Shown here: positions 17,061-34,473 of the stretch, one piece after another
Position numbering within the stretch: the stretch's first letter is position 1
Layout of the letters: each line of letters opens with the position of its first letter
DNA from: Lachnospiraceae bacterium
Lineage (GTDB): Bacteria; Bacillota; Clostridia; Lachnospirales; Lachnospiraceae
Length of the DNA: 64,000 nt
Assembly: GCA_022790615.1 (NCBI GenBank)
Contig: JAAVXK010000036.1
Coordinates: forward strand, 22,886-86,885
Reading direction: 5' to 3'
The notes under the pieces: generated by a model
Told to the model about the DNA's origin: nothing
Databases searched by the model: none
The model's input: only the letters and a program-made list of their open reading frames with translations
Made by a program: the position numbers and the translations under genes

Positions 17061-19355
17061 TCACAAAATCACGTCGCATGAAACCCGCAAATCTTTAACT
17101 GAGCGGCCCGCGCTTATCGTATATTTGCCGGAATCGGCCCGGAACGTCCCGTCTGACACAGAATAATATGCAAATGCATTTCTGTCAAGCTTTATCGTAA
17201 CGGACCTGCACTCCCCGGGTTCAAGCCCTACTTTCTTAAATCCTTTCAGCTCAAGCGCGGGCCTGTCAATGACAGGGTCATGTGCGCTTACATAGACTTC
17301 AGCAGTCTCTTTTCCAAACACGGAGCCCGTATTGGTAATCTCAAACGTCACCTCGAAAGCGTCCTCATCTTTACATTTTACTGCTTTGATATTGCCATAT
17401 TCAAATGTCGTGTACGACAGCCCGTGTCCGAACGGAAACAGCACGTCGATATTGCGGGTTGAATAATGCCTGTAACCGACGTATATTCCCTCGGAATACG
17501 AACACGTTATACCACCGTCCCCATCGTATGTTCCGGGATATTCGCCTATGCCGTGCGCAGGGCAGTCTGAAAGTCTGAAAGGAAATGATACGGGCAGCTT
17601 TCCGGACGGATTGACGTCGCCAAATATTACTTCGGCAAGCGCAAGACCTGCCTGCATACCGTTCATGCTGTTCCATAAAATTGCCGGCGCATTTTTTTCA
17701 AAAGCCGACATGTCAACTGCAGAGCCAGACAGGATTGAAACTACAGTATTCGGATTAGCCGCGAGCAATGCGTTTATTACTTCCGCCTGCTTATATGGCA
17801 GCTCATACGACGTCCTGTCAAACCCTTCCGTATCGTAAGCCCGGTTAAGTCCTCCGACGTATATAACCGCGTCGCACTCCCTTGCAAGGGCAACCGCCTC
17901 CTCAAGGTACTGTCTGCGGAGCTTTTCGATACTTCCTGTCTCCTCCCCGTTGCTAATCTTATCAGCACAGCCTGGCTTTTCCTCACAGCTAATCTTATCA
18001 ACACAGCCAGAGTTATCGTTATCTGCCTGATCCGTTCCGGATGCTTCATTGTCATTTCCCTCACCCTGCACGCCGGCTGTGTCTCCTGTTCTGTCGGCAG
18101 GCGCGTCAAGGCTGTTTGCCTGCCAGTCAACCTCGCCGACAACATGTTCCTCGTTGTCGACATAATAGCCTTTCGCATATTTTACGACCGTCCTGCTGCC
18201 GGTCACCATATTAATTCCCATGAGCGGGGTAATCTCAAACAACGGTTTTATCTCGGAGCTTCCGCCGCCGTGGGCAAGCTTTCTTACGGCCGCGTCTCCT
18301 ATGACTGCGATTGTCTCACATTTATCAGCGTTAAGCGGCAGAATGCCTCTCTCATTCTTTAAAAGCACAACCCCCTCGCGGGCCGCGTCAAGCATCACAG
18401 TATGGTGTTCAGGAAGATTATATCCTCCCTTATTCCTCTCGCCGTCGTACAGCCTGATTCGTTTCTGCAGCCGCAGAATACGCGCTACCTTGTCGTCTAT
18501 AACGTCCTCCGCGATATCACCGGCACGCACGGCTTCCTTCAGAGCGTCGGCAAAGAAGTATTCGTCAAAATTATTCGTCACGCTCATCTCAAGGTCCGTG
18601 CCGGCAAGCGCTACTGCAGCCGTGCTGTGTACGGCTCCCCAGTCGGATATGACGACCCCGTCGTATCCCCATTGTTCTTTTAATATATCGTTCAATAGTT
18701 TCGGATTTTCGCTTGCATACAGTCCGTTTATCTTGTTATAGGAGCACATGACCGAATAAGCCCCGCCCTCCTCCACGGCCGTCTTAAATGCCGGAAGATA
18801 GAGTTCATGCAGCGTCCTCTCATCAACGCGCACGTCAACTTTCATGCGCTCTTTCTCCTGGTTGTTGAGCGCAAAATGCTTGACACAGACGGCGACGTTC
18901 TGACTCTGCACGCCCTGAATCTCAGCGGCCGCCATCTTACCCGCCAGACAAGGGTCCTCGCTCATATATTCAAAATTGCGCCCGCACAGCGGCGTGCGCA
19001 CTATATTGATTCCGGGCGCAAGAATAACCTGCTTTCCGCGCCCGCACGCCTCGTTTCCAAGAACCTCGCCAAGGCGCGCGGCTATATCCTCATTCCACGT
19101 GGACGCCATCGCCGCGCCGGACGGCAGCCATGACACATAACACATAGGTTCGTCAACCTGAACCCACTCGTCGTCCTTATGGTCAAATCTCACCCCGCAC
19201 GGCCCGTCAGACATTACAAGCGGCTGTATTCCAAGCCTGTCAATCCCTTTATTCTTGAATAACGCCGCGCCGTGAATGAATCCAATCTTTTCATCGAGCG
19301 TCATGGCGCTTATTTTATTCTCAATCCATTTCTCCATATCGGCATCGTGATACAT
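17061..19355 (-). CDS. GH3 beta-glucosidase/xylosidase
   Basis: SDGPCGVR, GRNFEYMSEDP, KHFALN, nucleophile VISDWG, TEGFDR, FPFGHGLSYT, FnIII-like C-terminus. Confidence 0.95.
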   Translation of the reverse strand: MYHDADMEKWIENKISAMTLDEKIGFIHGAALFKNKGIDRLGIQPLVMSDGPCGVRFDHKDDEWVQVDEPMCYVSWLPSGAAMASTWNEDIAARLGEVLGNEACGRGKQVILAPGINIVRTPLCGRNFEYMSEDPCLAGKMAAAEIQGVQSQNVAVCVKHFALNNQEKERMKVDVRVDERTLHELYLPAFKTAVEEGGAYSVMCSYNKINGLYASENPKLLNDILKEQWGYDGVVISDWGAVHSTAAVALAGTDLEMSVTNNFDEYFFADALKEAVRAGDIAEDVIDDKVARILRLQKRIRLYDGERNKGGYNLPEHHTVMLDAAREGVVLLKNERGILPLNADKCETIAVIGDAAVRKLAHGGGSSEIKPLFEITPLMGINMVTGSRTVVKYAKGYYVDNEEHVVGEVDWQANSLDAPADRTGDTAGVQGEGNDNEASGTDQADNDNSGCVDKISCEEKPGCADKISNGEETGSIEKLRRQYLEEAVALARECDAVIYVGGLNRAYDTEGFDRTSYELPYKQAEVINALLAANPNTVVSILSGSAVDMSAFEKNAPAILWNSMNGMQAGLALAEVIFGDVNPSGKLPVSFPFRLSDCPAHGIGEYPGTYDGDGGITCSYSEGIYVGYRHYSTRNIDVLFPFGHGLSYTTFEYGNIKAVKCKDEDAFEVTFEITNTGSVFGKETAEVYVSAHDPVIDRPALELKGFKKVGLEPGECRSVTIKLDRNAFAYYSVSDGTFRADSGKYTISAGRSVKDLRVSCDVIL
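17952..18008 (-). repeat. 36-nt-period duplication in GH3 insertion loop
   Basis: GCTAATCTTATCA(G/A)CACAGCC at 17952 and 17988; encodes GCVDKISCEEKP GCADKISNGEET. Confidence 0.7.
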
Positions 19356-19386
19356 AGTGTGCGTTCTCCTTTCAGATTTTTAAAAC

Positions 19387-21666
19387 TTATTGATCATTTT
19401 CTTCCTGACGCGGTGCCCCGTCAATCATATGCATCCGAATTCCGGCGTCATTGTCCGCCTTCCCGTTAGAGCATGTTACATGTACTTCCTTTCGCTCTCC
19501 CGAAAACGGATTATACAGCGTCACGGTTTTATCCATTCCATCCTGCGGCATATATACATGTAACTCGCAATTATTAATATAATCGTAGTCCGGCCTCCCG
19601 TCAATCGTTCCGTGCGGGGTGACCGCGCCTTCCCTGACAAAGCATGGAATTTCGGTGTACGGAATACTTTTAAGCGTAATCCATGCTTTTCCGTCGTACA
19701 CTTCATTTGAAAAATAATTGACCCATCTCCCCTCCGGAAGATAGACGTCGGCCTGCGACTTATCGTTAAATACCGGGGCAACCAGTATGTCTCCGCCAAG
19801 CATATACTGCTTGTCCGTGTACGCGCACATCTTATCGTCAGGATATTCAAGAATCATGCTTCGCATGAGCGGCAGTCCCGTATTATGCGCTTCGACGGCA
19901 AGCCCGTATATATACGGCATAAGCCTGTTTTTAAGGCGTACAAATGTCTTTGCGGTCAGCACCGCGTCCTCACCGTAATTCCAGGGCACCCTGTAAGAGC
20001 CGCTTCCGTGCATCCTCGAATGGGAAGACATAAGCCCGAAAGCCACCCATCTTTTGTACACATCCTCCGTCGAAGTATCCTCAAATCCGCCTATATCATG
20101 GCTCCAAAAACTGTAGCCGGACATTGTCAGTGAAAGGCCTCCCCTTAAGCTCTCCTCCATTGATTCATAATCGGATATGCTGTCGCCGCCCCAGTGTACG
20201 GGGAATTTCTGTCCCCCGGCGGTTCCGCTCCTTGCAAACAAAATTGCCTCTTCGGCTCCCTTTTCCTCCAATATTACATTATACACTGCCTCATTATACA
20301 GATATGAATAATAATTGTGCATAAGTACCGGGTCCGCCCCATTATGATAGCATACGCCCTCCGTCGGAATCTGCTCGCCGAAGTCTGTCTTAAAACAGTC
20401 CACGCCCATGTCTAAGAGTTTCCGCAGACAGTCCTGATACCACCTTACCGCATCCTCATTCGTAAAATCAACCACAGCCATCCCCGGCTGCCACATATCC
20501 CACTGCCAGATGTCTCCGTTTTTCTTCTTTATAAAATATCCGTTATCTCTTCCGCAGGCAAACAATTCCGAATTCTGCGCAATGTATGGATTAATCCATA
20601 CGCAGACCTTAAGCCCTTTCGCCTTAATCCTTGCAAGCATCGCCTCGGGTTCGCCAAACACCTTGTCATCCCACTTAAAATTGCACCAGCTCATACCTTT
20701 CATCCAAAAGCAGTCAAAATGAAATACGCTGAGCGGTATCTCTCTTCTCTCCATCTCGTCAATGAAGCTCATTACCGTGTTTTCATCATAATCCGTAGTA
20801 AATGAGGTCGACAGCCAAAGGCCGAACGACCACGCCGGAAGTATGGGAGGTCTTCCGATAAGCCCCGTATATTTTACCAGCACATCCTTCATGCGGCCAT
20901 ACGCATTCTCATCCCCGCATATGACGGAAAATTCAAGGCTTTCGCCCTGGACGGAAAACTGGACTCTCTGCGCAAGCTCGCTTCCAACCTCGTATTCTAC
21001 TCTTCCGGTATTATTTACGAATACGCCGTACCCTCTGTCTGACATATAAAACGGAACATTTTTATAGGAGAGCTGCGTCGACGTTCCCCCGTCGTCATTC
21101 CACATCTCGACAACCTGCCCGTTTTTAACAAACGCGGTAAATCTTTCCCCCAGACCGTATATGTGTTCGTCAACCGATAAGTTCGTTGCTGCGCACATAT
21201 AGTTAACGTCTTGCCAAGATATGTACGCCTCGCCCCGTCCGTCCTCTCTCACATACATGATATCGCCCGGCTTTATTCGCGTAAGATATCGTTCCTTCTG
21301 GTAAAATTCCAATGTCATATCATTTTTTATAACAAGCTTTGCGCCGTCGTTCTCGATAACAGTGTTACCTTCAACCGACTCTGCCTCAAGTTTTGCAGGG
21401 TTTGCATTTACATCAAATGCCGGCACATACCCGGTCTGTCCCTCAAAGTGTGTTAGCTTTACCGTAAATACCCCCGGAGCCGGAATACTTATCCTTACCG
21501 TTATAACCGGCACATTAAGCGTACACCCCCTGTTATATATTTTCCTTACAGGCGCGCATATCTTTAACACCGTGCCATCCTGTTCATAACATGTATCATA
21601 TATTTCAGCCGGCGAAAGGCACTCCATTCCCTTTTCTTTTAACCAATGTCCGTGATTGAACTTCAT
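19387..21666 (-). CDS. yicI: GH31 alpha-xylosidase
   Basis: MKF..G.W start, YGLGERF, FHFDCFWM, nucleophile FKTDFGE, HWGGD, WSHDIGGF. Confidence 0.93.
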   Translation of the reverse strand: MKFNHGHWLKEKGMECLSPAEIYDTCYEQDGTVLKICAPVRKIYNRGCTLNVPVITVRISIPAPGVFTVKLTHFEGQTGYVPAFDVNANPAKLEAESVEGNTVIENDGAKLVIKNDMTLEFYQKERYLTRIKPGDIMYVREDGRGEAYISWQDVNYMCAATNLSVDEHIYGLGERFTAFVKNGQVVEMWNDDGGTSTQLSYKNVPFYMSDRGYGVFVNNTGRVEYEVGSELAQRVQFSVQGESLEFSVICGDENAYGRMKDVLVKYTGLIGRPPILPAWSFGLWLSTSFTTDYDENTVMSFIDEMERREIPLSVFHFDCFWMKGMSWCNFKWDDKVFGEPEAMLARIKAKGLKVCVWINPYIAQNSELFACGRDNGYFIKKKNGDIWQWDMWQPGMAVVDFTNEDAVRWYQDCLRKLLDMGVDCFKTDFGEQIPTEGVCYHNGADPVLMHNYYSYLYNEAVYNVILEEKGAEEAILFARSGTAGGQKFPVHWGGDSISDYESMEESLRGGLSLTMSGYSFWSHDIGGFEDTSTEDVYKRWVAFGLMSSHSRMHGSGSYRVPWNYGEDAVLTAKTFVRLKNRLMPYIYGLAVEAHNTGLPLMRSMILEYPDDKMCAYTDKQYMLGGDILVAPVFNDKSQADVYLPEGRWVNYFSNEVYDGKAWITLKSIPYTEIPCFVREGAVTPHGTIDGRPDYDYINNCELHVYMPQDGMDKTVTLYNPFSGERKEVHVTCSNGKADNDAGIRMHMIDGAPRQEENDQ

Positions 21667-21730
21667 ATTGTAATAACCTCCTCCTCAATGTTTCTTTTAA
21701 TTAGCAGCAAAACCCAAAAAACCGATATAC

Positions 21731-21768
21731 TCAAAACAGGGTGAACACGTAATGTGTTCACCCTGTTT
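21731..21768 (-). terminator. intrinsic terminator closing the giant-protein/peptide transcript
   Basis: 15-bp perfect stem AAACAGGGTGAACAC / GTGTTCACCCTGTTT ending in a T run on the minus strand. Confidence 0.8.
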
Positions 21769-21842: not shown

Positions 21843-21944
21843 TTATGCAAATGGGTTTACTTCTCCTTCAGGTATACTTGTTGTAATAATATCCTCTGCA
21901 TAGAAGACAATTACCTCCATGTCAGGGGCTTCATACTTCTCCAT
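21843..21944 (-). CDS. 33-aa putative RiPP precursor with lasso-type RRE-binding leader
   Basis: Not in ORF track. MEKYEAPDMEVIVFYAEDIITTSIPEGEVNPFA; GAAAGGTGGTGG RBS 6 nt before ATG; YxxPx(L/M) motif and DIITT-S junction; followed by a terminator. Confidence 0.85.
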   Translation of the reverse strand: MEKYEAPDMEVIVFYAEDIITTSIPEGEVNPFA

Positions 21945-22007
21945 GTATATCCACCACCTTTCCTGATTCAGACGACATGTCGTATCACGGACATAACCAT
22001 CTTATCA

Positions 22008-25000
22008 TTATTTACTCTTGCAGTCATTATAACTGCTTGACTTCATAGAGCCGTAGATTGTTTCCTGATTTCCTTCCGGATCAGTAACTACCATATATGG
22101 TCTTGCCCACAAAGTCCTGTCAAGATTATTTGTAACCTTCATTGTAAATACGCTGGTTACACCTACAGAAGTAAATTTAAACTGTTTATGTGGCAGAACT
22201 GTGCCATTTACTGTCTGTCCCAGAGTTGCTATTGTCATCTGCTCTTCCTGTATCTCCTTAGCGCTATACAACATACCCATTTCAACTACAGTATAATCTT
22301 CACCTTCTGGAAGGTTCATAGTTGAAGAGAACGAAAGCTTATTATTTCCGTCCGCTGTATCAGTAGTGTATATTTCAGTAATAGCAATCGTAGGTTTAAC
22401 TGAACCCGGCTTAACAGAAACATAAACAGCTTTCAGTGTTATTGGAGTCTCAGTCAAAACAACAAACTCATATGGCAGTGCAGAACCGATGTTTTCACCG
22501 TCTCTCTCCCAGTGTGAGAAGTAGAGTGTGCTGCTTCCTACCGTAACTTCTGCCTCTGCATTTGCCTGATACTTACTTCCTACTTCAGGTTGTGCTGTAA
22601 CTTCATCAGCAACAGTATTTCCGCTCGCATCTACATATTGTACTGTTACATTTCCTGTCTTGGCAGCTTCTAACTCATATACAGAATATACATTTATATT
22701 TCCTGTCTTATTCTCTGTTGCTGCCAATTCATCCGCTTTGGCTTTAATAGCAGCTGCAATATCCGCTGTTGCTTCAGTTGCACCTTGTTCCATAGACCAT
22801 CCCTTGAATACATATCCAAACTTGTTAGCGCCGGCAGCCAATTGTATATCAGCAGCTTCCGGAACAGCCAATGGATTAATATCCGTACGGCCTACTTCTG
22901 TTTTATTGTCATAACCATAGAAGATTACGGTTATTCCGCCTTCAATACCGCACCATTTACATTTGCCGCCTACATAAGAATGTGGTACGGCAGGCAATAC
23001 CTGATAGAGCATACCTTCATAAGCCATACCTGCTTCTGTCTGCTCTCCTCCTGAGAAATACTTCTTGTTTTCCACATCGTTCACTGTAGTTCTGGCAAGA
23101 ACCCACTTGTAACCTTCACCAGGTTCAAGCGTACGGTTTTCATCAGGAACTTCTACAGGGTCACAGGATGTACAACGTGCTTCCTGTCCCTGGACATTGA
23201 AATCATTGTCCATTACGGCTTCGGCAGTGTACTTATGTCCCGGGTCGCCTTCCTGACAATCTTTACGCTCACACTCAAATGTTGCCAAAACTGTCGTTCC
23301 CTCTTCTCCTGCCTTCCATGAGAATGTAGGAGTACCATACAAATGTCCTTTTGCAACTCCTGCAACCTGCTCTGCAGTGTACTCGGCAGAACATTTGCTG
23401 TCCTTATAGAATCTGCCGCACCTGTCGCATGCATAATGAGCCGGTTTAGCCGGTTCAATACAAGAAGTCGTTGTTTCCGCCTTTACGTATCTCAGGTTAT
23501 GGTTAGCTGAACCTGTCGCTTCCTCTACGCTATATTCAATGCTGTCCCAACCTTCCGGCAGGTTCCATGATGCCATATCTTCTTGAGATATTCCATCGAA
23601 TACCGCAGTCTTTTCTTCATCAGATACCTGATATTTCCAAGAATATCCTTTAGAACAATCTGTAACCTTAATTCCATCCTCAGCAACAGTTGCTCCAGTT
23701 ACCTGGTCAGATACTACCGCTGCATTCAAAACATATTTCTGAGTATGCGACGCATCATGTGCACATGTACGGGTAATAGTAATTGGAATAGAAAGGGCTC
23801 CGTCTGCAACAGCCGCCTCGTCCTTAGTTACTTTTGCATCACCATAACTATGGGCGTCAGCAACTATAGCAAGGGTCTGCTCCTGACTCATTATCTGTTC
23901 TTCAGCAATATCATCCGAACCAACCAAATCACTATCAGCAATACTCCATGTAGCTGTTCCCGTAGCGCTGCAGGTAGCTTCTAATGTTACTTCTTTCTTA
24001 ACTGACGCGCTTTCCTCCGGCACCTCTACATGGTCGCATCCTGTTCTGGTACACTTCTTAGTCTTTGTAGCAGACCATGTACCATCCTCAGCCTGCGTCC
24101 AATTGATATACCACTTATTCAGATGTCCAAGCTGGTCGCTTGTTAATACCCTCATATCCTGTGCAAGACGAACATTAGTCATGCCCTTCTGATACAGGTT
24201 AGCTGTATATGTCATTGTACCCGACTTATCACATGTAGCCTGCGTACCTGATTTTACAAGCTCAAGAAGAGTATAAGTGTCTTCCCACTTGAACACTGTG
24301 TCTCCGTCTTCATTTTCTGTGCCATCTGTCAATGGCAACTCATAAGTCACAACCGGATAAACGTCATCATTAGCTTCACTTGTGTCCGGATGCTCCTCAC
24401 AAGCTGTACACTTTCTTGTTACTGCCAAGTTTGTATATACATGGTCAGCCTCATTCAAGGTCCAGTTAAATACAGTAGTCTCCTTATGTCCAGGTCCTTC
24501 TTTGGTATATACCTTTGTATTCGGATTACCAATCGTAGTCTCTCCTGCATGAATCTGAGCCACATATTCAGTCCTTGTACTTATTGTACAGCTTCCTTCT
24601 CTATGGTTCGGATTCGATACAAACTCAATATAAGGTTCTTCCTGCTCCGCCGGTGCAGACAACAGTGTGCTTACGTCTGTCTCAATAGTTGTCTTATTCT
24701 GTACACTATTAGTAGTACAGCCTTCATTCGCACAATAATATTCTGCCTGTACTTTATAATCAGGAATATTATATGTTTTTCCATCCTGAGTATACTCTAC
24801 CGTTAATGCTCCGCCGGAAACAGCATCCACCTGTTCTGTCCATGTCCATGCCGGCTCCGTCCAGTTATGAGCGTTAGGATCTATAGCCGTTGCCGTCTCA
24901 ATCTTTTCAGGCACTGCATTAACATCACATATATTCTTGGTGCCATCACGATATTTTACAACAACATCATATACGGCATAGCCTTTTTCTGCACAGGAAG

Positions 25001-28000
25001 CGGTCTTATTCTTTTCACTGTCCGCTTTTGTAATAACAACCTGAGGCATTGAATATACAACAGAGTCGTCATCACCATCCAACATGGTAGAGCCTTCGTC
25101 TATAATCATTGCCGGACTCTTGACTTTCAGTACCTTGTCACATCCTTCGTTCGCGCATGTGATAGTAACTATTACACCCTTACTGTAATCATGAACTGTT
25201 TCTTCAGTATCACCAGCTGTTGCATCTGCCCACTGTACTTTTACATTAGCGCCGCTAAGATTATGTTTCTGCTCTACAACTTTCTCCAGTACAGCAGTAT
25301 ACTTGGTTGACTTTGAGTCTGCAGTTACTTTCGAAGTATCATAGCTAAGTTCTACGTTACCGTCAACCGTCTCTGTAACAACGCCGTCTTTTGAAAAATC
25401 ATATGAAGCGTTATATTTCAATGTAACAGTTTTACCACATTCAGGTGTTGGATTATTCGCATCCGCAGGTGCTTCAATATTACCAATCGTAACTTTATTA
25501 TTACACTCTTTACATGTAATCTCCATCTGCGCCTTATCAGTGTCCTTACCTTCTGCGTCTTTCTCCCAGCTGAACTTCACGCTGCCTGACTCAAAAGTAT
25601 GTGGTCGCATTGGAATAATTGTATCTGCTTCTTCTACAGGTTCTGTTGAATCTTCGCCCAAAAACAGTCTGTTACAGGTTGAACAACTATATGTTGCCTT
25701 GTGTCCTTCCTTCGTACATGTAGCAGCCATGTATCCTTGCTGCTTAGTCAATTCATGAGCCGGAGTAATTGATTTCTCCGCCTCTACAGTTCCTTCCGTA
25801 TCAGCAAACGCAAATACTGCCTTGAACGGATAAGCGTTCTGACATGAAAGACTTGATGCATCAAACTCGCCTGTACCGGCATATGTCACAACAACCGGAT
25901 TCTCGGAAGCAGCCGTAAGTTCCTCTCCACACTTATCACAAACGGCCGTCACAGTCACTCCGTTATCTTGACCTGATGCAAAGTTCTTAATATCAAAATT
26001 ATCCCAGTTTGCTTCAACACTACTTACAGTATGCTTTCCTGCCGGAATGGTTACTTCCTGCTCTGTAAATGTCTTTGACAGCTTACCGCTAGGTGTATTA
26101 ATCGTAACCGTTACATCAAGTTTATATTTCTTTTCCTGTGCACAGTTACTCTTTGGGTCACCTTCTTTTATAATAACAGAAATGTTATTCTCAGAAGCTT
26201 CTATAACATGCTCTGCATTATTAGAACATGTAACCTTTGCTGTTACGCCATTAGCCTCACCATAGGCATAGTTCGCAGCATTGAATTCTGTTGTATCAAT
26301 CGAAATGTTATCTACAGCATAGCTGTGGCCTGTAGCAGGCGTCACGTATGTTGATTCTTTTTTGCCACTTATTCCGTTTGCATCCAACTCAAGCTCACTT
26401 AAGCTATCATAACACAATCCACAATTAGGGCACTTAACGTATGCCTTTGCAATAATATCATTCTCGCATGCATCCGTACCTTCCGGTGTTGCCTCAACAG
26501 TTGTTCCGTAATGCTGTTGTTTAGGAATAACAACATCTCCCGTCAGCATATCAGCGCCGGTCTTATCCTCATACATCTGGTGACAATTCACACACTCATA
26601 ATGACCAATCACGCCTTCTTCCCAACAAGTTGCCGCTTTTTCCGAAACCCATTTTATAGAATGTTCTTTTGGTACAATTACATATCTTCCATCCTGCTGC
26701 TCTGCCGGGCTGCAGCCTGAAACATGCTGAGGTTCCTTATCAAATGAACCTCCTCTGACATTGACATTGATTCCTGTAAGTGTACTATCAGTCTCACCGT
26801 CATAGAATATCTTGCTGTCAGAACCGTTACCTACATTGAATGTTCCTCCATTGATATTCAGGTTCAATTTTACAGGGTCATTATCGGTTCCCGGAACCTT
26901 TTTGTAAGGTATAGAAATTACATGCTGCTCGCCAGTAGTTCCTTTTGCCTCAAATGTACCGTCGTTAATTGTCACATCCGCATTGGCCGGGAGGTAAAGT
27001 ACTGCGTTGAATTTCTTGATAGTATCAGTATTACAACATACTTCACTTGAATATGTTCCGCCGTTAATCGTAATCTTGCCAGGAGCCGTACTTCCGTTCA
27101 TGGCAATCGGAGCAAACATACTTGAAATTGAAGGGTTCTTTGTACCGTCTCCTAATACCAATGTTCCGCCAAGGTTAACGTAGATACCATACATACCGTC
27201 TGTCTTCTGGGCATTACCTACGTTTGCATTAATTGTTGCGTCAAGTACTGTAAGCTTACCGCTTGTACCCGTCACACTAATCAATGACGCGCCGTCATAA
27301 CTTGTATTGTTTGACGTAGACATTTCACTTGTCTGTGCATTACACTCAAGTACAGCGCCGCCTTTAATTGTTGATATGCCGGCTACCATCATCATGGCAA
27401 CGCCCTTTGTCTGGTATTTACCGCCATCAATTGTCAATGTTCCTCTCACATCGAATATCGTGTGATTTTCAGCATTATCTGACCATGCAATTCCACCACT
27501 GTCTTCAGCTGCTACAGTATTCTTAATAACGCCTGTAGTTCCTCCTGTCAGAACAAGCTCCTGACCATCCGGAACCGTAACCATATAACCTTTTGTGTCA
27601 ATAGTCACACCAGTAAAGTCATAACTGCCTGCAAGTTCAATGTTATCCAGTAACTGAACTTCACTATTACCAGCATCTTTAGACGCATTAATAGCATCCT
27701 GAAGCTTTGAAAATTTCTTGCCGTTTACACTGAAACTAACCGGTTCTCCAACCTTGTACAGGCCGTCTCCATCCGCATCCGCAATAAGAGCTTTTCCGGC
27801 AGCAACAGAGCCTTCGTTCAATTCTTTTGATATATCAGAAGAGAACTTTCCTCCGGTTACTGAAACCTTAGTCTTGTTGCTTTCACTAGCCTTGTTCGGA
27901 TAGTAGAATACTGAACCGTTATTACCACCTGTCTTAAAAGTTCCGCCGCTAATCTTCAGATTAAGCCTTACAGTACCATACTGTGTCTTGTCATATGGTA

Positions 28001-28925
28001 TTGAGATAACATGCATATCGCTGCTTGTAGAATCAGAAGCTGTAAATGTTCCGCCGCTTATATCTACAGTAGCGCTTGCCGGAAGGTAAAGCACCGAGTT
28101 AAATTTAATAATATTCTCGCCGCTGCATACCAGCGTGCTGGTATATTCACCACCCTTAATGGTAATCCTTCCAGGCGCGGTCGTAGCGTTCATGGCTACT
28201 GCAGCGAACTTACTGGTTACGGACGGGCCTGTGCCATCGGCATTACCCAGTTCCACTTCTCCTCCGTTCCATATGTATATACCATACATTCCGCAGTCGG
28301 TATCGTTACCAACGTTGGCATCAATGCTACCGTAAGTCATAGTAAACTTCGCTCCCGCGCCATCTACATCAATGAATGCGGCGCCGTCATAATAACCTTT
28401 TGCAGCTGCCTGCTCCTTAGTTGCGGTACAGTCAAATATAGAGCCCTTAGCTGTTACCGTACCGGTAACCTTGAGCATATCTACGCCTGCGCTCTCATAG
28501 AGGCCGCCGTTCATAGTAAGATTACCGTTTACCAGGAGCATGGTATGGTTCTTTGCCATGTCGGTAAACCCAGCTTCCTCTACTGGAACTTCGTTAATAA
28601 TCCTAGTTCCTTGATCGAATACAACATTTTCAGCCGTATCCGGAATCGTAATCAGGTAACCCTTTGTATCAATGGCCACGCCTTCCAGATTCTCGGTAAG
28701 CTGTACGTTTTCTTTCAGCTCAATCTTCTTAGCGCCGGCTTTAACAGCAGCGTCCAAAGTAGCGTAATCGCCGCCCTTTCCGACAGTAACAGCCTGTTCA
28801 GTCGTCTGGCCGCCTGTTTCTGTGCCTTCTGCCGCTCTCGCGTTGGACGGTCCCGAAATAAGCGACACTACCATTGCCGCGCTAAGCGTCAGGCTCAACA
28901 AGCGTTTCAACTTCTTTTGCTTCAT
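22008..28925 (-). CDS. 2305-aa secreted/surface protein: duplicated beta-rich N-terminal domains, about 15 His/Cys modules, beta-sandwich C-terminus
   Basis: Start moved to ATG 28925 (GAAAGGAG RBS; signal peptide MKQKKLKRLLSLTLSAAMVVSLISGPSNARA). Two paralogous domains (GMYGIY, AMN.(T/S)TAPG.ITI.GG, FN.VLYLPA, HVISIPY). Repeated H..(T/S)C..G..CxxC. InlB-B-repeat-like GYVFKGWS and YFSHWE. Confidence 0.9.
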   Translation of the reverse strand: MKQKKLKRLLSLTLSAAMVVSLISGPSNARAAEGTETGGQTTEQAVTVGKGGDYATLDAAVKAGAKKIELKENVQLTENLEGVAIDTKGYLITIPDTAENVVFDQGTRIINEVPVEEAGFTDMAKNHTMLLVNGNLTMNGGLYESAGVDMLKVTGTVTAKGSIFDCTATKEQAAAKGYYDGAAFIDVDGAGAKFTMTYGSIDANVGNDTDCGMYGIYIWNGGEVELGNADGTGPSVTSKFAAVAMNATTAPGRITIKGGEYTSTLVCSGENIIKFNSVLYLPASATVDISGGTFTASDSTSSDMHVISIPYDKTQYGTVRLNLKISGGTFKTGGNNGSVFYYPNKASESNKTKVSVTGGKFSSDISKELNEGSVAAGKALIADADGDGLYKVGEPVSFSVNGKKFSKLQDAINASKDAGNSEVQLLDNIELAGSYDFTGVTIDTKGYMVTVPDGQELVLTGGTTGVIKNTVAAEDSGGIAWSDNAENHTIFDVRGTLTIDGGKYQTKGVAMMMVAGISTIKGGAVLECNAQTSEMSTSNNTSYDGASLISVTGTSGKLTVLDATINANVGNAQKTDGMYGIYVNLGGTLVLGDGTKNPSISSMFAPIAMNGSTAPGKITINGGTYSSEVCCNTDTIKKFNAVLYLPANADVTINDGTFEAKGTTGEQHVISIPYKKVPGTDNDPVKLNLNINGGTFNVGNGSDSKIFYDGETDSTLTGINVNVRGGSFDKEPQHVSGCSPAEQQDGRYVIVPKEHSIKWVSEKAATCWEEGVIGHYECVNCHQMYEDKTGADMLTGDVVIPKQQHYGTTVEATPEGTDACENDIIAKAYVKCPNCGLCYDSLSELELDANGISGKKESTYVTPATGHSYAVDNISIDTTEFNAANYAYGEANGVTAKVTCSNNAEHVIEASENNISVIIKEGDPKSNCAQEKKYKLDVTVTINTPSGKLSKTFTEQEVTIPAGKHTVSSVEANWDNFDIKNFASGQDNGVTVTAVCDKCGEELTAASENPVVVTYAGTGEFDASSLSCQNAYPFKAVFAFADTEGTVEAEKSITPAHELTKQQGYMAATCTKEGHKATYSCSTCNRLFLGEDSTEPVEEADTIIPMRPHTFESGSVKFSWEKDAEGKDTDKAQMEITCKECNNKVTIGNIEAPADANNPTPECGKTVTLKYNASYDFSKDGVVTETVDGNVELSYDTSKVTADSKSTKYTAVLEKVVEQKHNLSGANVKVQWADATAGDTEETVHDYSKGVIVTITCANEGCDKVLKVKSPAMIIDEGSTMLDGDDDSVVYSMPQVVITKADSEKNKTASCAEKGYAVYDVVVKYRDGTKNICDVNAVPEKIETATAIDPNAHNWTEPAWTWTEQVDAVSGGALTVEYTQDGKTYNIPDYKVQAEYYCANEGCTTNSVQNKTTIETDVSTLLSAPAEQEEPYIEFVSNPNHREGSCTISTRTEYVAQIHAGETTIGNPNTKVYTKEGPGHKETTVFNWTLNEADHVYTNLAVTRKCTACEEHPDTSEANDDVYPVVTYELPLTDGTENEDGDTVFKWEDTYTLLELVKSGTQATCDKSGTMTYTANLYQKGMTNVRLAQDMRVLTSDQLGHLNKWYINWTQAEDGTWSATKTKKCTRTGCDHVEVPEESASVKKEVTLEATCSATGTATWSIADSDLVGSDDIAEEQIMSQEQTLAIVADAHSYGDAKVTKDEAAVADGALSIPITITRTCAHDASHTQKYVLNAAVVSDQVTGATVAEDGIKVTDCSKGYSWKYQVSDEEKTAVFDGISQEDMASWNLPEGWDSIEYSVEEATGSANHNLRYVKAETTTSCIEPAKPAHYACDRCGRFYKDSKCSAEYTAEQVAGVAKGHLYGTPTFSWKAGEEGTTVLATFECERKDCQEGDPGHKYTAEAVMDNDFNVQGQEARCTSCDPVEVPDENRTLEPGEGYKWVLARTTVNDVENKKYFSGGEQTEAGMAYEGMLYQVLPAVPHSYVGGKCKWCGIEGGITVIFYGYDNKTEVGRTDINPLAVPEAADIQLAAGANKFGYVFKGWSMEQGATEATADIAAAIKAKADELAATENKTGNINVYSVYELEAAKTGNVTVQYVDASGNTVADEVTAQPEVGSKYQANAEAEVTVGSSTLYFSHWERDGENIGSALPYEFVVLTETPITLKAVYVSVKPGSVKPTIAITEIYTTDTADGNNKLSFSSTMNLPEGEDYTVVEMGMLYSAKEIQEEQMTIATLGQTVNGTVLPHKQFKFTSVGVTSVFTMKVTNNLDRTLWARPYMVVTDPEGNQETIYGSMKSSSYNDCKSK

Positions 28926-28939
28926 AGTGTATAAAACTC

Positions 28940-29530
28940 CTTTCATGTATAATATGTGACAGTCGTACAAACCCTCTGCCGGACTGCAAATCCCGGCGGC
29001 GCGCCCAAACAAGGGGCTTATAGGGTATGAAATGGACTTTGCCATGACTTCTCAGAGACATTCACAAGACCTTGTGGAGTGTCTCTCATGAATCTTGCAA
29101 TAATCCATGAAACACACAATGGCACATTACGTTTGCAGTTCCAACCTTCCACAAAGGCATGTAAACTTTCCCTTGCAGAATATGAATCCATATGGTTCCC
29201 AGCAAATCACTTCATAATGTCATGGATGCTTCTGCCCTCCTCTCAGTATATCCATATAAATGGTAATTGCCCATTGTCATATAACTGCCACTTTCATTGC
29301 CGCTTCTGCAGCAATGTATGGAAACAAAAAACCTTCCCACCCATTTGTTCCCATACATAAGCCGCAGAAACATGCTTTCGTTAAATACACTACGGCAAAA
29401 CGCCGTCTCGCCGGACTCCCGGCATTGAACACACTTTAACAAAACATAATTTTGCAGATAAAATTATTTTGCAAAATATATTTTCAAAATATATATAAAA
29501 GCATATTTTTTTCAAAACACACTTATATAC
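28940..29530 (-). promoter_or_regulatory. long (about 600 nt) structured 5' leader
   Basis: Lies between a consensus promoter and the ATG at 28925; long hairpins at 29304-29369, 29054-29086, 29410-29423 and 28978-28997. Confidence 0.6.
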
Positions 29531-29535
29531 CCTAA

Positions 29536-29564
29536 ATTATAGCACCCGGCTATCTTATTGTCAA
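29536..29564 (-). promoter_or_regulatory. perfect-consensus sigA promoter for the giant protein/peptide unit
   Basis: TTGACA-17-(TGC)TATAAT. Confidence 0.85.
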
Positions 29565-29711
29565 CAACACCGCCGCACACACTTTATTCCATTTCTTCCA
29601 GCGATTGCGTAAATCTTGCTTTTCGTCAATCCCCCGCTCCGCCGTTCCTGCGCGGCCGTTTTCCCATGTGCGCGTGCTCCGCTGTTTTCCACATATCCGG
29701 ATAGTTTCGTA

Positions 29712-29771: not shown

Positions 29772-30968
29772 CTATTTCCCGCCGATATCGCGCAATGCGC
29801 CAAGTTCCGTTTTGAGACTTTTTCTGTAACGAAACAGCTGTCTGAACACACGGTAAACAAGAAAAAACGGAATGCATACCTTATGCTTTGCAAGGAACGG
29901 CTTATGTCTGCGATACCAATCCATGTCCGGAAACAGCCTTCTTACTATATATCTTCTTCTTACTGCTGCGCCGGGCGTCCCTCCGTCTATATGCATCTCC
30001 TGCATTTTCCTCTCCACAAGCCCTTTCGATGTTCCATATACTCCCGACAATGCAAAATCAGCCAGCAGGGTCTTTTCCTTTTCCGTAAGCGCCGGCGGAT
30101 TTGACAGCGCGTTCTCTCCAAATATTTTCCGGCTCAAAGCCCTCATTTTTGCCTCAAACGAGGCCATCCCAAGCTTATCCGCCTCACTTGTCACGTAATT
30201 CCAGTCTAACGCATCCCCCTTTTTCCATATATACACATATATGTCGGCCAGGTATCGGAATCCCGCGCCGGCGTTTAAGTAATGCCGGTACATGTGGGCA
30301 ATCATGTAGATATAGAAGTCCTCGTCGCTAAAATGCCTTCCGTATTCCAACCCTTCGTCCACAATCAGCCTGTCGCGCACTCCCCTGTAATATTGACATA
30401 ACGTCGGGGAAGCTTTGTCAAAGAGTCTGCCGTGCATCTCAAAACATCCCGCCGTCGGCTTCACGAATACGTCGTGATATTTTTTGTTGAGCTCCTCTGT
30501 CCGAAACCCCAAATTCTCCATTACCCGCCTGAGCTTTTTGTGGCAGGACACGTCATAGAGAATGTCCACATCGCCGTTCTGGCGCATTCCATAACACGGA
30601 TACATATACTGCAGCACGCTCCCCTTCAGGGGCATATACCAGATTCCCGCCGCTTCCATTGCCGTAAGGACCTGTTCCCTTGACGCGTCGAGAAGCATGT
30701 TCTTACGTATCGCCTTTCCCTTCTCCATAGTCCATTTCTGCACTGTGGATGCGTCTGCAGACTTGAAAGATTCCGTTCTTTCCAACGGCATACATATCAT
30801 GGCAGCCATATTATGGAACACGCCCATCCTGCACAGCCTATCCAAATCCATCAAAGCGACCCTGTCTTCCTCCGGAGCGCGGTCATGCAGGGCGCAGGCC
30901 GCAAGATACAACAGATCCCACGCTGCCGCGGGCATCTTTTTATTATCCGTCCTCTGCTCCTTACCCAT
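29772..30968 (-). CDS. nucleotidyltransferase family protein (NTP_transf_5-like)
   Basis: PLKGSVL..MYP..GMRQNGDVDIL motif, FEMH, H..RH....GAGFRYLADI; ATG 30968 preferred over GTG 30983. Confidence 0.88.
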   Translation of the reverse strand: MGKEQRTDNKKMPAAAWDLLYLAACALHDRAPEEDRVALMDLDRLCRMGVFHNMAAMICMPLERTESFKSADASTVQKWTMEKGKAIRKNMLLDASREQVLTAMEAAGIWYMPLKGSVLQYMYPCYGMRQNGDVDILYDVSCHKKLRRVMENLGFRTEELNKKYHDVFVKPTAGCFEMHGRLFDKASPTLCQYYRGVRDRLIVDEGLEYGRHFSDEDFYIYMIAHMYRHYLNAGAGFRYLADIYVYIWKKGDALDWNYVTSEADKLGMASFEAKMRALSRKIFGENALSNPPALTEKEKTLLADFALSGVYGTSKGLVERKMQEMHIDGGTPGAAVRRRYIVRRLFPDMDWYRRHKPFLAKHKVCIPFFLVYRVFRQLFRYRKSLKTELGALRDIGGK

Positions 30969-31013
30969 ACTGCACGCCCTCACCTTTCCCTAATTATCGC
31001 CAAACACTATAAT

Positions 31014-32783
31014 TTATCCAAACTTTATCTCTTTGTCGCATATCGACAGCGCCGCCATCCTGTGGGTTACTATAATGACCGTCTTATCAGTCATTGCCTT
31101 GAGATTAGCAAGAAGCCTTATCTCAAGAGCCTCGTCGAGCGCGCTAGTCGCCTCATCGAGCAGTAAAACCGGGTTGTCCGAAAATACCGCCCGCGCAATT
31201 GCAATACGCTGCATCTGCCCTTCCGAAAGACCCGTGCCGCGTTCGCCAAGCAAAGTGTCAACACCCTGTTCTAACTGTCTGACAAAGCCATCGGCGCATG
31301 CAATTTTCAATGCCCGCCAAAGCCGTTCTTCCTCCTGCATCATACCCGGATTGCCGAATGCTATAATCTCGCGAATCGTACCGGACATAAGCTGGTTCCC
31401 CTGCGGAACGTATGCAAAAAGCCGCCGCTGTCTGAGCGTAAGAGGAAGTTTCCCCGCATCCGAAACAAGGTACACCCCCCCGCCATCCGGATGATACAAG
31501 CCCATAAGCAGCTTGAGAACGGTGCTCTTGCCGCATCCGGAATGTCCGGTAAATGCAACATACTCTCCCTTACATATCTCTAAGCAAAGACCCGAGAGCA
31601 CTGCAGGCATTGACTGCCCGTCCGGCAGATTATCTTCCAGAACACCCGACTGTACCGGAGGTCTGTAAGTAAAGGATACGTTTTCCACACAGATTCTATG
31701 CAGACGCTCCCTGTAAAACACATGCTCTGGACTTTCATCTTCGCCGCTGCAACCTGCCTCTGTTATTTCATACTCATCATTCATACTATTCGTCCCCGCC
31801 GTTTCATGTATGACGCTGTCAGGCAGATATTCCGCCTCCATGAGACGCTCCGCGCTTGCTATCATCGCATAAAACTTTGGCAGATATCCCGTAATATTAG
31901 CAAAAGGATTCTGTATCTGACCGATAAGCTGCATTACGGCAGTCAGATTTCCATAACTCATAGTATCTCTTAGTATGCCGTACCCGCAAAAAACAGCTCC
32001 TAACACATAAGCTCCGTTCATTGCGGCTCCGAAACCGATGTTACATATATTAGAAAAATGATTCCTTCTCATCTTGGCCGCGCGGTGTTCTTTCATAAGT
32101 TCCTCCGCGCGTTCCGCCGTCGAAGCCTCCTGCGCGAAAGAACGGACAATCATCATTGCGCCAAGACGCTCCTGAAAAAATATTCTGAGACTCCCGTCCG
32201 CCTCCTGTATCTTCTTATGCAATTTCTTAAGGGCTTTCCTGAAAATGTAGGCCATAATAATCAAGATAGCCCCTCCGGGAACAAGTATTATGATAAACAC
32301 CGGCTCAATATACAGTATTGCGGCCAGTGCGCCCACAATCTTAACAGCCATTCCCGCCACGCCGGGAAGAATCTGAGCCATTCCGTCCGCTACTACAACC
32401 GTATCGGACGTCAGCCGGTTCATCCATTCACCTGAATTCACGCATGACACATATGCGTAATCCTTATACAGCAAAGATTCAAAAAGCCGCTTTTTCAAAC
32501 GGTTTTCGGAAGCGGAACGCGTGAATTCCTCCAAAAAGCGATAGACTGCCCGCAGCGCAATCTGTACAATCATTACTCCCGCAAAAGCCATGGCCGCCAC
32601 AGCAAATCCATCCGCGTTTCCAGCCACAGCCTCATTTACCAGTTCCCGCAGTATCATTGCGTATGCCACACCGCAGACCGACAGCACGGACTGTACGGCC
32701 AACAGTATCAGGATGTGTATTCTAATCTTTCCGGCCACGCCATTCAGCCACTGTAACGCGGAACGGTTTATTTTCTTTTTCAT
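31014..32783 (-). CDS. ABC exporter, fused permease/ATPase, no C39 peptidase domain
   Basis: TM domain; Walker A GHSGCGKST; signature LSEGQMQR; Walker B LLLDE. Confidence 0.95.
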   Translation of the reverse strand: MKKKINRSALQWLNGVAGKIRIHILILLAVQSVLSVCGVAYAMILRELVNEAVAGNADGFAVAAMAFAGVMIVQIALRAVYRFLEEFTRSASENRLKKRLFESLLYKDYAYVSCVNSGEWMNRLTSDTVVVADGMAQILPGVAGMAVKIVGALAAILYIEPVFIIILVPGGAILIIMAYIFRKALKKLHKKIQEADGSLRIFFQERLGAMMIVRSFAQEASTAERAEELMKEHRAAKMRRNHFSNICNIGFGAAMNGAYVLGAVFCGYGILRDTMSYGNLTAVMQLIGQIQNPFANITGYLPKFYAMIASAERLMEAEYLPDSVIHETAGTNSMNDEYEITEAGCSGEDESPEHVFYRERLHRICVENVSFTYRPPVQSGVLEDNLPDGQSMPAVLSGLCLEICKGEYVAFTGHSGCGKSTVLKLLMGLYHPDGGGVYLVSDAGKLPLTLRQRRLFAYVPQGNQLMSGTIREIIAFGNPGMMQEEERLWRALKIACADGFVRQLEQGVDTLLGERGTGLSEGQMQRIAIARAVFSDNPVLLLDEATSALDEALEIRLLANLKAMTDKTVIIVTHRMAALSICDKEIKFG

Positions 32784-33282: not shown

Positions 33283-33540
33283 TCATTCTATAGCCCCGAT
33301 AGAGTTAAGTTTTTCAATTATCTTATTGACGTCCGCCTCAATCACTTCCCGCGGAGCGTCATATTTTGCAGCCATTGCATCTACAATCTCTGCCTGCGTA
33401 GTCTCTTCCTTAAGACAGTTAACAATAAATGCCGCCGTGCGGTTGCTTCGCACCATACCCGAAAATACGGACGTGCTTCCCGCAACCATAATCTGCTCAC
33501 CGTCACTTTCATGGGTGATGAAATCTTTCCGCAGTTTCAT
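33283..33540 (-). CDS. PqqD-family RiPP recognition element (stand-alone RRE)
   Basis: 85 aa: three beta strands, then NRTAAFIVNCL...IVDAMAAKYDAPREVIEADVNKIIEKLNSIGAIE. Confidence 0.92.
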   Translation of the reverse strand: MKLRKDFITHESDGEQIMVAGSTSVFSGMVRSNRTAAFIVNCLKEETTQAEIVDAMAAKYDAPREVIEADVNKIIEKLNSIGAIE

Positions 33541-33711: not shown

Positions 33712-34473
33712 TCACTTCATACCTTCATAAGCCGTCACGGCGGCCTGCGCTTCCATATTACATGCAAGCCGGTACAATCCGGCTTTTGAAGTTATCTGTT
33801 CCGTCAGGCGCATAACCTGCTCCAGCTTATCCGAACACGCCGGGCGGTAGGTTTGCTGCATAAGAAACGGCCAGGCCTCCCTGCGCGTAATTTTACGAAT
33901 CCTGTTTTCACTGCCGCGTTCCAGAATGCATACCGCTTTCAGGGGAACCGCAATATTATTACTCAAATGATGCTTCCCGTCCCATGGTGTGCCATATACG
34001 GTCACTCCGCCATCCGTAATCCTTAGCAGCGGCTTATCGTCGTTAACCATTACCGCACGGCTGCCGAAGGTTTCTCTCCATATCCGCGTATGCGTACTCT
34101 TTCCAACGCCGCTCTTAGCCGTGAAAAGATAGGCCTCGCCATCCACCGCAACCGCCGAACCATGAAACAAAAGAATTCCCCAATCTGTCAGCTCTTCCGC
34201 AATCTTTCTGTACACTGCAAGCGTCTCCAGGTAATTGTCCGAAAACCGCCGTACACTCACGCCATTACGCTCATCCTGCATTGCGGACTTTTCTTTTTCA
34301 AATACTATATCGGAATATTCTACACAAACTTTACAAGCAGGTTTCTCATCCGTCAAATATTCCCGGCAAAATAGTTTTGTTGAATTATATAAGGCAGAGA
34401 TACCAATAGGAACATCTGCCAGTTTTATATTAAATCTTATATTTTCCCCCAAACCTTTCCTCCTGACATACAA
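33712..34473 (-). CDS. HPr-kinase-like P-loop kinase (ScmC / lasso-kinase-like)
   Basis: LFHGSAV, Walker A AKSGVGKST, VNDD, YGTPWDGK; true start may be TTG at 34452. Confidence 0.85.
   Translation of the reverse strand: MYVRRKGLGENIRFNIKLADVPIGISALYNSTKLFCREYLTDEKPACKVCVEYSDIVFEKEKSAMQDERNGVSVRRFSDNYLETLAVYRKIAEELTDWGILLFHGSAVAVDGEAYLFTAKSGVGKSTHTRIWRETFGSRAVMVNDDKPLLRITDGGVTVYGTPWDGKHHLSNNIAVPLKAVCILERGSENRIRKITRREAWPFLMQQTYRPACSDKLEQVMRLTEQITSKAGLYRLACNMEAQAAVTAYEGMK

Follow-up and report, generated by a model that had tools for sequence, protein, structure and literature searches.

A 64,000-nucleotide (nt) stretch of a Lachnospiraceae genome (GCA_022790615.1, contig JAAVXK010000036.1, positions 22,886 to 86,885 of the forward strand; here called the window) contains a gene for a giant secreted protein of 2305 amino acids (aa), an open reading frame (ORF) for a 33-aa precursor-type peptide downstream of it and, on the same strand, a cassette of five putative peptide-maturation genes (Table 1). 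Taken as a whole, the locus was best explained as one copy of a widespread, undescribed protein-peptide-cassette system of gut and rumen Clostridia, an explanation in which we place about as much belief as doubt. Three parts would make up this system, namely, the five-gene cassette, precursor-type peptides of 30 to 60 aa, and anchor-less secreted proteins that each have their own peptide gene. Comparison of sequences argued strongly that the protein and the peptide belong together, and the account was built on direct observations of gene anatomy, the domain and peptide families, gene order, and co-occurrence at the genome level.

An exhaustive search of 1.84 billion proteins, with the C-terminal 141 residues of the giant protein as the query and a threshold of E ≤ 0.001, detected a family of C-terminal domains (type A; alignment A1) comprising 87 representative clusters. 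The domain ended no more than 25 aa from the C terminus in 85 of these 87 clusters, the proteins ranged from about 115 to 4700 aa in size, and 45 of 61 full-length members passed a crude signal-peptide test. The window domain matched the A1 profile with an E value of 2.4e-37. When this profile was applied to 201 sampled genomes of the same family, 5 genomes were matched, and an order-wide domain search gave no match in 400 other genomes. Representative genomes rarely carry the type A domain, and metagenomes are the source of most of its members.

Downstream DNA was readable for 12 type A proteins, those of the window and of loci L025, L052, L028, L029, L055, L056, L057, L058, L067, L120, and L022. 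A family peptide was encoded on the same strand, at a distance of 3 to 130 nt, in 11 of the 12, in line with the co-occurrence of the domain with ORFs of the DIITTS type for which a first-pass annotation of this DNA had proposed a test. These peptide-positive loci came from the window, G023, G014, P0053, P0089, P0006, P0015, P0019, P0013, L067, and L120, with P0053 and P0089 representing the two closest full-length relatives of the giant protein. At L022 (genome G165), a 38-aa ORF of divergent sequence took the place of the peptide; it has its own terminator, and its ribosome-binding site is strong. The sole negative for a downstream peptide was G032, which had a weak and partial match to the A1 profile; the peptide search had earlier matched all four of the other genomes matched by that profile. 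In G007, no peptide was detected and the cassette lay directly after the end of the domain-bearing gene.

The same gene order was observed in loci located through peptides or cassettes. At 14 loci, the gene directly before a peptide, on the same strand, encoded a secreted protein of 390 aa or more. Four of these loci were looked up without bias and lacked a cassette within 9 kb; the pairing was kept both close to a cassette and away from one. Many loci had gaps of only 3 to 20 nt between the two genes. A survey anchored on cassettes detected 45 peptides in 33 of 80 cassette loci, of which 19 were directly after a same-strand gene of at least 300 aa, 5 were after small secreted proteins, 1 was after a cassette gene, 8 had only an opposite-strand upstream neighbor, and 5 were at contig ends. 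Conservation of the protein-then-peptide order across genera and metagenomes speaks for functional coupling rather than chance placement. Two further modules were present at the C termini of proteins upstream of peptides. Type B (alignment A5) gave an hhalign probability of 67% and an E value of 5e-5 against A1 and is probably related to it on this profile comparison. Type C (alignment A4), which had no Pfam match, ends in a helix with the pattern A-L-Y-x-Y-x-x-A-A-x-x-Y (e.g., L107:5756-6175 and L043:9963-10382) and was the commonest module on proteins upstream of peptides near cassettes.

The cassette adjoined protein-peptide pairs in the window and at L043, L044, L046, L023, L056, L057, and L058, and all or most of its genes were beside pairs in G035, G014, G156, and G165 and on the contigs of P0015, P0019, and P0013. 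The order on these three contigs was protein, peptide, membrane-anchored protein, kinase, PqqD, and peptidase-like protein, followed in P0019 and P0013 by the ATP-binding cassette (ABC) exporter and the nucleotidyltransferase; the P0015 contig ended within an unidentified gene after the peptidase-like one. The kinase marked at least 595 loci in species-representative genomes (Ruminococcus, Lachnospiraceae, Oscillospiraceae, Eubacterium, Kandleria, and others), and full-length orthologues were present in about 19 of the 201 family genomes. Strong domain matches outside the window genome were limited to G007, G023, and G165, each of which has a full-length cassette kinase. All sampled genomes with true peptides had homologues of the kinase and the peptidase, and a false-positive genome had neither. 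In the sampled genomes, the domain was found only where the cassette was present, so that the outcome named in the first-pass annotation as refuting its idea, a domain common in genomes without the cassette, did not occur in the genomes searched; no probability was attached to these counts because related genomes are not independent. The system was also present in the cultured organisms Ruminococcus flavefaciens Y1, Kandleria vitulina DSM 20405, and Porcipelethomonas ammoniilytica. Lasso-type PqqD models matched the window PqqD below their cut-offs, and the kinases of relatives carried PF27840 (ScmC).

In the peptide of the window, the conserved N-terminal part (Y-x-x-P ... E-D-I-I-T-T-S) precedes a short acidic tail with N-P-F-A at its end. 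Members of the family (alignments A2 and A6) have this Y-x-x-P motif, a hydrophobic strand, E-D-I-I-T-T-S, and a variable acidic tail; in A2, Y4, D18, and S23 were invariant and the proline of Y-x-x-P was present in 19 of 22 peptides. Tails ranged from 8 to about 35 aa and had no fixed acidic position, and an aromatic or proline motif was common at the end. A cut after T-T-S would leave the window peptide with a 10-aa tail in which residues 3 and 5 are Glu. No match to the window peptide was detected in Pfam or NCBIfam. A profile search detected at least 608 clusters of the family, without a Pfam domain and with "hypothetical protein" as the few names given; conservation on this scale, together with a strong ribosome-binding site, the Shine-Dalgarno-like AAAGGUGGUGG, before the window ORF, indicated that the ORF is not spurious. 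The general pattern of precursors that depend on a peptide-recognition (RRE) protein was observed, with a conserved leader, a hypervariable tail, and an RRE, a peptidase, and an exporter recurrently nearby. The N-P-F-A ending also occurs in an enzyme-like ORF on contig C5, a resemblance put down to coincidence. Tandem arrays of precursor genes were found at several loci: six with differing tails lay directly upstream of the cassette kinase, without a large protein, at L060 (positions 2215-3223), and smaller arrays were present at L075, L101, and L126.

The start of the giant gene was assigned within a raw minus-strand ORF (22008-29045) to an ATG at 28925 that is preceded by AAAGGAG. A public representative, P0003, has an identical C-terminal domain and the same length and start. 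The signal peptide is of the typical Sec type without a lipobox and is the only hydrophobic run of at least 17 residues in the protein. No LPXTG-like motif with a membrane tail was found at the C terminus; as the genome encodes two sortases, this absence is meaningful and the organism uses LPXTG anchoring, though not for this protein. Pfam gave no match to SLH, LysM, choline-binding, GW/SH3b, WxL, or dockerin families in scans of the whole protein (E ≤ 0.01) or of four overlapping pieces (E ≤ 5), and Pfam and NCBIfam together returned nothing besides MucBP and a subthreshold InlB B-repeat. The protein belongs to the InlB B-repeat/MucBP surface proteins through its MucBP match, which was just above the Pfam cut-off. 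These results upheld the earlier description of a protein with a Sec signal peptide and no recognizable wall anchor. The N-terminal part (residues ∼40 to 2000, within 22940-28800) contains two similar repeats of ∼350 aa without a Pfam match, followed by a long stretch of recurring C-x-x-C units without a family match; the protein contains 51 Cys and 35 His residues, and the C-x-x-C stretch is rich in both.

The C-terminal beta-sandwich described in the first-pass annotation was recovered with high confidence. An AlphaFold2 model from the A1 alignment was a sandwich of ∼130 aa with a predicted local distance difference test (pLDDT) score of 93.5, while a single-sequence fold of the last 306 aa (pLDDT of 39) was unusable. 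Structure comparison with Foldseek and an exhaustive aligner detected generic FN3 folds, the best with a Z score of 9.1 and a root mean square deviation of 2.6 over 91 residues. The top matches (Z scores of 9.1 to 7.5) were all of this generic kind, and known wall- or scaffold-binding modules were not among the matches listed; some FN3 matches come from structures that also contain a bound partner protein or ligand. Neighbors among predicted structures were unnamed Bacillota proteins with InlB B-repeats, and the type A relatives checked had InlB B-repeats (clear matches), CBM6, fn3, or Big_4 domains upstream of the domain. No Pfam family, including those that bind the wall, matched the type A domain. 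It thus appears to be an unnamed C-terminal module particular to this family, without a match to the wall-binding domains described so far.

A single transcript for the giant gene and the peptide had been proposed. No strong terminator was present in the 63-nt gap, where the hairpin was modest and without a U-tract. No RNA contig bridged the junction in either of the RNA studies that matched the locus. A pattern scan for terminators between 21400 and 22300 reported nothing; as it also missed the obvious hairpin at 21730 to 21765, its negative result is weak. The window organism is from the mouse gut, and three contigs of a mouse-gut metatranscriptome (X5) together covered the giant gene between 21957 and 29099. 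In the second study (X15), one contig (21780-21955) included the peptide ORF. Contigs of both studies ended at 21955 to 21957 with no loose ends, while the DNA runs continued, which hints weakly that an RNA ends or is processed within the Shine-Dalgarno region. Among the X5 contigs listed, none covered the peptide ORF or the interval from 29100 to 29660. Upstream of the giant gene, a perfect-consensus promoter noted in the first-pass annotation was confirmed (12/12 positions, with a TG extension), ∼600 nt before the start codon. It was reached by no RNA contig, X5 coverage ending at 29099; the loose end of the X5 contig at this position suggested that the strain in the sample, or the transcript, differs upstream of 29099. 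Fusion of the peptide to the giant protein by read-through or frameshifting was rejected for the window, where three stops separate the two in the same frame, and for L028 and L029, where they are in different frames. Beyond the downstream terminator, on the same strand (17061-21666), are genes for an alpha-xylosidase (GH31; 1067 bits to an NCBIfam equivalog) and a GH3 glycosidase, which are ordinary carbohydrate genes unrelated to the system.

Table 1. Features of the window and of related loci (locus numbers precede coordinates outside the window)
Feature	Coordinates	Strand	Basis or remarks
Intrinsic terminator: 12-bp GC-rich stem, 5-nt loop, then UUUUGAG	21730..21765	minus	fold and sequence
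33-aa precursor-type peptide	21843..21944	minus	ORF starts 63 nt past TAA of giant gene
Spacer, 63 nt	21945..22007	minus	three in-frame stops (TAA, TGA, TAA), modest hairpin, Shine-Dalgarno
Gene for 2305-aa secreted protein	22008..28925	minus	ORF reading, Shine-Dalgarno placement, comparison with P0003
FN3-like beta-sandwich, unnamed type A (A1)	22011..22433	minus	family search and AlphaFold2 model
MucBP-like domain, residues 2132-2208	22422..22652	minus	PF06458, 24-27.3 bits (cut-off, 23)
InlB B-repeat-like segment, subthreshold	22755..22871	minus	Flg_new and Flg_new_2, E 0.01, 16 bits (cut-off, 27)
Sec signal peptide, residues 1-31, cleavage after A-R-A	28833..28925	minus	read from translation
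Long untranslated leader, promoter-like site to start codon	28926..29535	minus	read from sequence
Promoter-like site, TTGACA-17-TATAAT with TG extension	29536..29564	minus	12/12 match
NTP_transf_5 nucleotidyltransferase	29772..30983	minus	PF14907, E 5.8e-43
ABC exporter, fused permease and ATPase, without peptidase domain	31014..32783	minus	family matches
Signal-peptidase-I-like protein, 152 aa	32780..33238	minus	weak TIGR02228, E 4.6e-4; adjoins PqqD in relatives
PqqD-type peptide-recognition protein (RRE)	33283..33540	minus	PF05402, E 1.4e-15
HPr-kinase-like/ScmC-like P-loop protein	33712..34473	minus	TIGR04249, E 7e-7; alignment A3
Putative stalk genes	L023:3511-4248, L044:11288-11521, L052:7271-7516, L043:9105-9638, L146:9160-9528, L066:5380-5919, L082:9363-9845		beside peptides
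Genes for C-terminally membrane-anchored proteins	L056:8779-9594, L057:13731-14585, L058:5797-6405, L022:13872-14924		gene right after peptide

Many peptides of the family are accompanied by a third type of protein, of 77 to 245 aa, with an N-terminal membrane helix or lipobox (a signal peptide in its place in some of those listed) and an acidic, low-complexity body; these proteins are possible wall-spanning stalks. A C-terminal motif of the stalk mirrored the tail of the adjacent peptide at L023, L044, L052, L066, L082, and L146 and on contig C23; the small protein listed for L043 likewise ends in a motif like the neighboring tail. The stalk and peptide motifs were G-W-T-G-Y-Y beside G-W-S-G-Y-Y at L023 and G-W-G-P beside P-G-W-G-S at L052, and the mirrored motif was E-L-P-F-I/V-P at L066 and L082 and I-E-L-P-I-I-P at L146. 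Contig C23 (1246-3399), in the same genome as the window but outside it, carries a second locus of the system with a family peptide, where the tail D-F-P-F-E-G-F-E is mirrored by a 93-aa membrane-anchored acidic protein ending in F-E-I-P-F-S-L-F-E; the locus also contains PqqD and signal-peptidase-like genes of divergent sequence, as well as a secreted protein of 193 aa with G-W-V-P-G-W-Y at its end. At L056 to L058 and L022, the protein encoded after the peptide has a C-terminal membrane helix with a basic tail that is not of the LPXTG type, and those of L056 to L058 also have a signal peptide, a leucine-rich-repeat-like domain, and an acidic linker. A search of the window genome for a homologue of the L056 membrane-anchored "X" protein matched only the leucine-rich-repeat part (a 765-aa ORF). 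In the window itself, no stalk gene follows the peptide, and the next gene is that of the alpha-xylosidase behind the terminator.

The cassette resembles the paeninodin and pseudomycoidin lasso clusters in its HPr-kinase-like enzyme, stand-alone PqqD, ABC exporter, and NTP_transf_5-type nucleotidyltransferase, and the precursors of those clusters also have a Y-x-x-P leader motif and a Thr near the presumed cleavage site. In the lasso clusters, it is at its C-terminal Ser that the peptide is tailored by both the kinase and the nucleotidyltransferase (PMC7533575). Neither an asparagine-synthetase-like cyclase nor a transglutaminase-like protease was detected among the five cassette proteins or the cassettes of relatives, however, and a signal-peptidase-like protein takes the place of the cyclase and the leader protease. 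The tails, moreover, do not fit a lasso ring, for which a small first residue, an Asp or Glu at positions 7 to 9, and a threadable length would be expected, and the precursors characteristically lie behind large secreted proteins. Judged by its gene content, the cassette is not a lasso cluster, whereas peptide recognition and export are, by analogy, probably similar to those of lasso systems.

Likenesses to three other surface systems were also apparent. The WxL/csc clusters of lactobacilli and enterococci likewise combine secreted proteins without LPXTG, a common C-terminal module, and small partner proteins anchored in the membrane or wall, but no WxL match was found here, the csc clusters are not known to include a peptide-maturation cassette, and the domains are unrelated. 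The conserved C-terminal sorting domain of type IX secretion in the Bacteroidota is, like the type A domain, a beta-sandwich of ∼100 to 130 aa at the extreme C terminus of otherwise unrelated secreted proteins; the present host, in contrast, is Gram positive and not known to have type IX machinery, and the partner is a small peptide with an RRE-type cassette. In the staphylococcal MSCRAMMs, Ig/FN3-like adhesin domains bind peptides by a "dock, lock and latch" mechanism, and by analogy the sandwich described here could take up a short peptide with a free C terminus by strand addition. No sequence relation to MSCRAMMs was found, and the putative ligand would be self-made. The literature searched contained no description of a kinase/PqqD/signal-peptidase-like/nucleotidyltransferase arrangement with a surface protein, and neither it nor Pfam or NCBIfam provided a name for the peptides, the two main C-terminal domain types, or the gene order.

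From these features we infer a course of peptide processing, export, and binding, and possibly a role in holding the protein on the cell. The peptide would be translated from the same operon as the giant protein, or from RNA processed out of it, and PqqD would bind its conserved N-terminal part. The signal-peptidase-like enzyme would cleave after T-T-S, since the small residues at −3 and −1 suit the signal-peptidase class, which prefers such residues at these positions. The kinase and nucleotidyltransferase may modify the peptide, and the ABC transporter would carry it out. Outside the cell, the peptide would work with the co-encoded protein, most plausibly as the cognate ligand of its C-terminal region. 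In the form of a sortase-independent display, in which the matured peptide, the stalk motifs, or both are cognate ligands of dedicated C-terminal domains, this proposal is tentative and rather unlikely to be correct as stated. A cofold of the A1 domain with an A2 peptide, run without controls, scored 0.02 against a mark of 0.32 and counts neither way on binding.

Several observations weigh against a dedicated peptide-protein partnership of this kind. A large protein is the commonest neighbor of a peptide but not an obligatory one: 7 of the 45 cassette-near peptides come after another peptide, with as many as six in one array (L060). Peptides also follow type C proteins, whose alignment A4 gave an hhalign probability of only 0.8% against A1. 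As a result of these type C pairs and of the tandem arrays without a large protein, A1 cannot be the general or only receptor. The tether or adaptor model put forward in the first-pass annotation, in which a ribosomally synthesized and posttranslationally modified peptide (RiPP) would be bound by the C-terminal sandwich, was supported in part, by the conserved pairing, the cassette co-occurrence, and the absence of a match to known wall-binding domains; its binding and tethering steps are hypothetical. Adjacent genes duplicate together, so that descent alone can make domain type and tail motif correspond. Tails of the form x-P-W/F occurred in 6 of 11 type A pairs, and 4 of the 5 type B pairs ended in W-x-x-x-Y; this was not used as evidence because both members of a pair are inherited as a unit and a single genome supplied three of the type B pairs. 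The window tail after T-T-S contains no Ser, Thr, or Tyr, and the kinase would thus have no target there. The contig ends at 21955 to 21957 hint weakly that the RNAs for the giant protein and the peptide are separate molecules or products of processing. If so, this would weaken the case for production in "matched amounts," a hypothetical element of the first-pass annotation. Finally, if anything tethers the protein, the stalk proteins would be better candidates than a free peptide, and the peptide could then be a soluble mimic.

The tandem arrays beside cassettes (L060, L075, and L101) and the presence of at least two unrelated C-terminal domain types on upstream proteins are also what would be expected if the peptide were an ordinary exported signaling or antimicrobial peptide, placed behind strong surface-protein genes for expression only. 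Peptide natural-product clusters commonly put precursors under stronger expression than their enzymes, and the RNA-library contigs covered the whole giant gene. This use of the upstream gene as a source of expression has appreciable weight but is, on balance, unlikely, as the upstream genes are not random: they almost always encode large secreted proteins with one of three recurring C-terminal modules, the pair persists far from the cassette (L025, L029, and L140 to L147), and a peptide lies behind 11 of the 12 type A proteins. The mirrored motifs would alternatively fit an arrangement in which the C-terminal domain of the large protein binds the stalk motif and the exported peptide competes, regulates, or reports. 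That the stalk is the tether was considered a distinctly unlikely explanation, given that like motifs may be due to common descent or a shared processing enzyme and that the window has no stalk gene after the peptide.

Two further explanations place the peptide elsewhere than in maturation and export or deny it this role altogether. Conservation of the N-terminal 23 residues, tails of only 8 to 10 aa without modifiable residues in some members, and gaps of 3 to 20 nt, which suggest production at the same place and time, could reflect a peptide whose N-terminal part acts in the cytoplasm on the protein or its mRNA as a secretion pilot, anti-folding factor, or regulator. The combination of Y-x-x-P with a nearby PqqD and ABC exporter is instead the pattern of leader-dependent maturation, and the tandem arrays with varied tails resemble precursor libraries; an intracellular helper is therefore very improbable. 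Polymorphic toxin systems are laid out in this way, with a small acidic ORF directly behind the gene for a large secreted protein, but in the family described here the C-terminal domain is conserved and plainly FN3-like and it is the N-terminal regions that vary in length and domains, which is the reverse of polymorphic toxins. A toxin-immunity-like pair can thus be given hardly any credence, and the same applies to a spurious ORF in view of its protein-level conservation and ribosome-binding site. The protein-peptide-cassette system was retained as the best overall explanation.

Clostridia of the gut and rumen commonly have large surface proteins without an anchor. The occurrence of the system in cultured strains opens it to direct testing. 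If the display reading is not true, the family would still form a large class of lasso-like peptides that has yet to be explored and whose synthesis involves no cyclase. Should the peptide or the stalks prove to be partners of the C-terminal domains, the machinery for maturing ribosomal peptides would gain a new role, and a new principle of Gram-positive surface display would emerge, by which the cell could attach, exchange, or release each surface protein via its own peptide.

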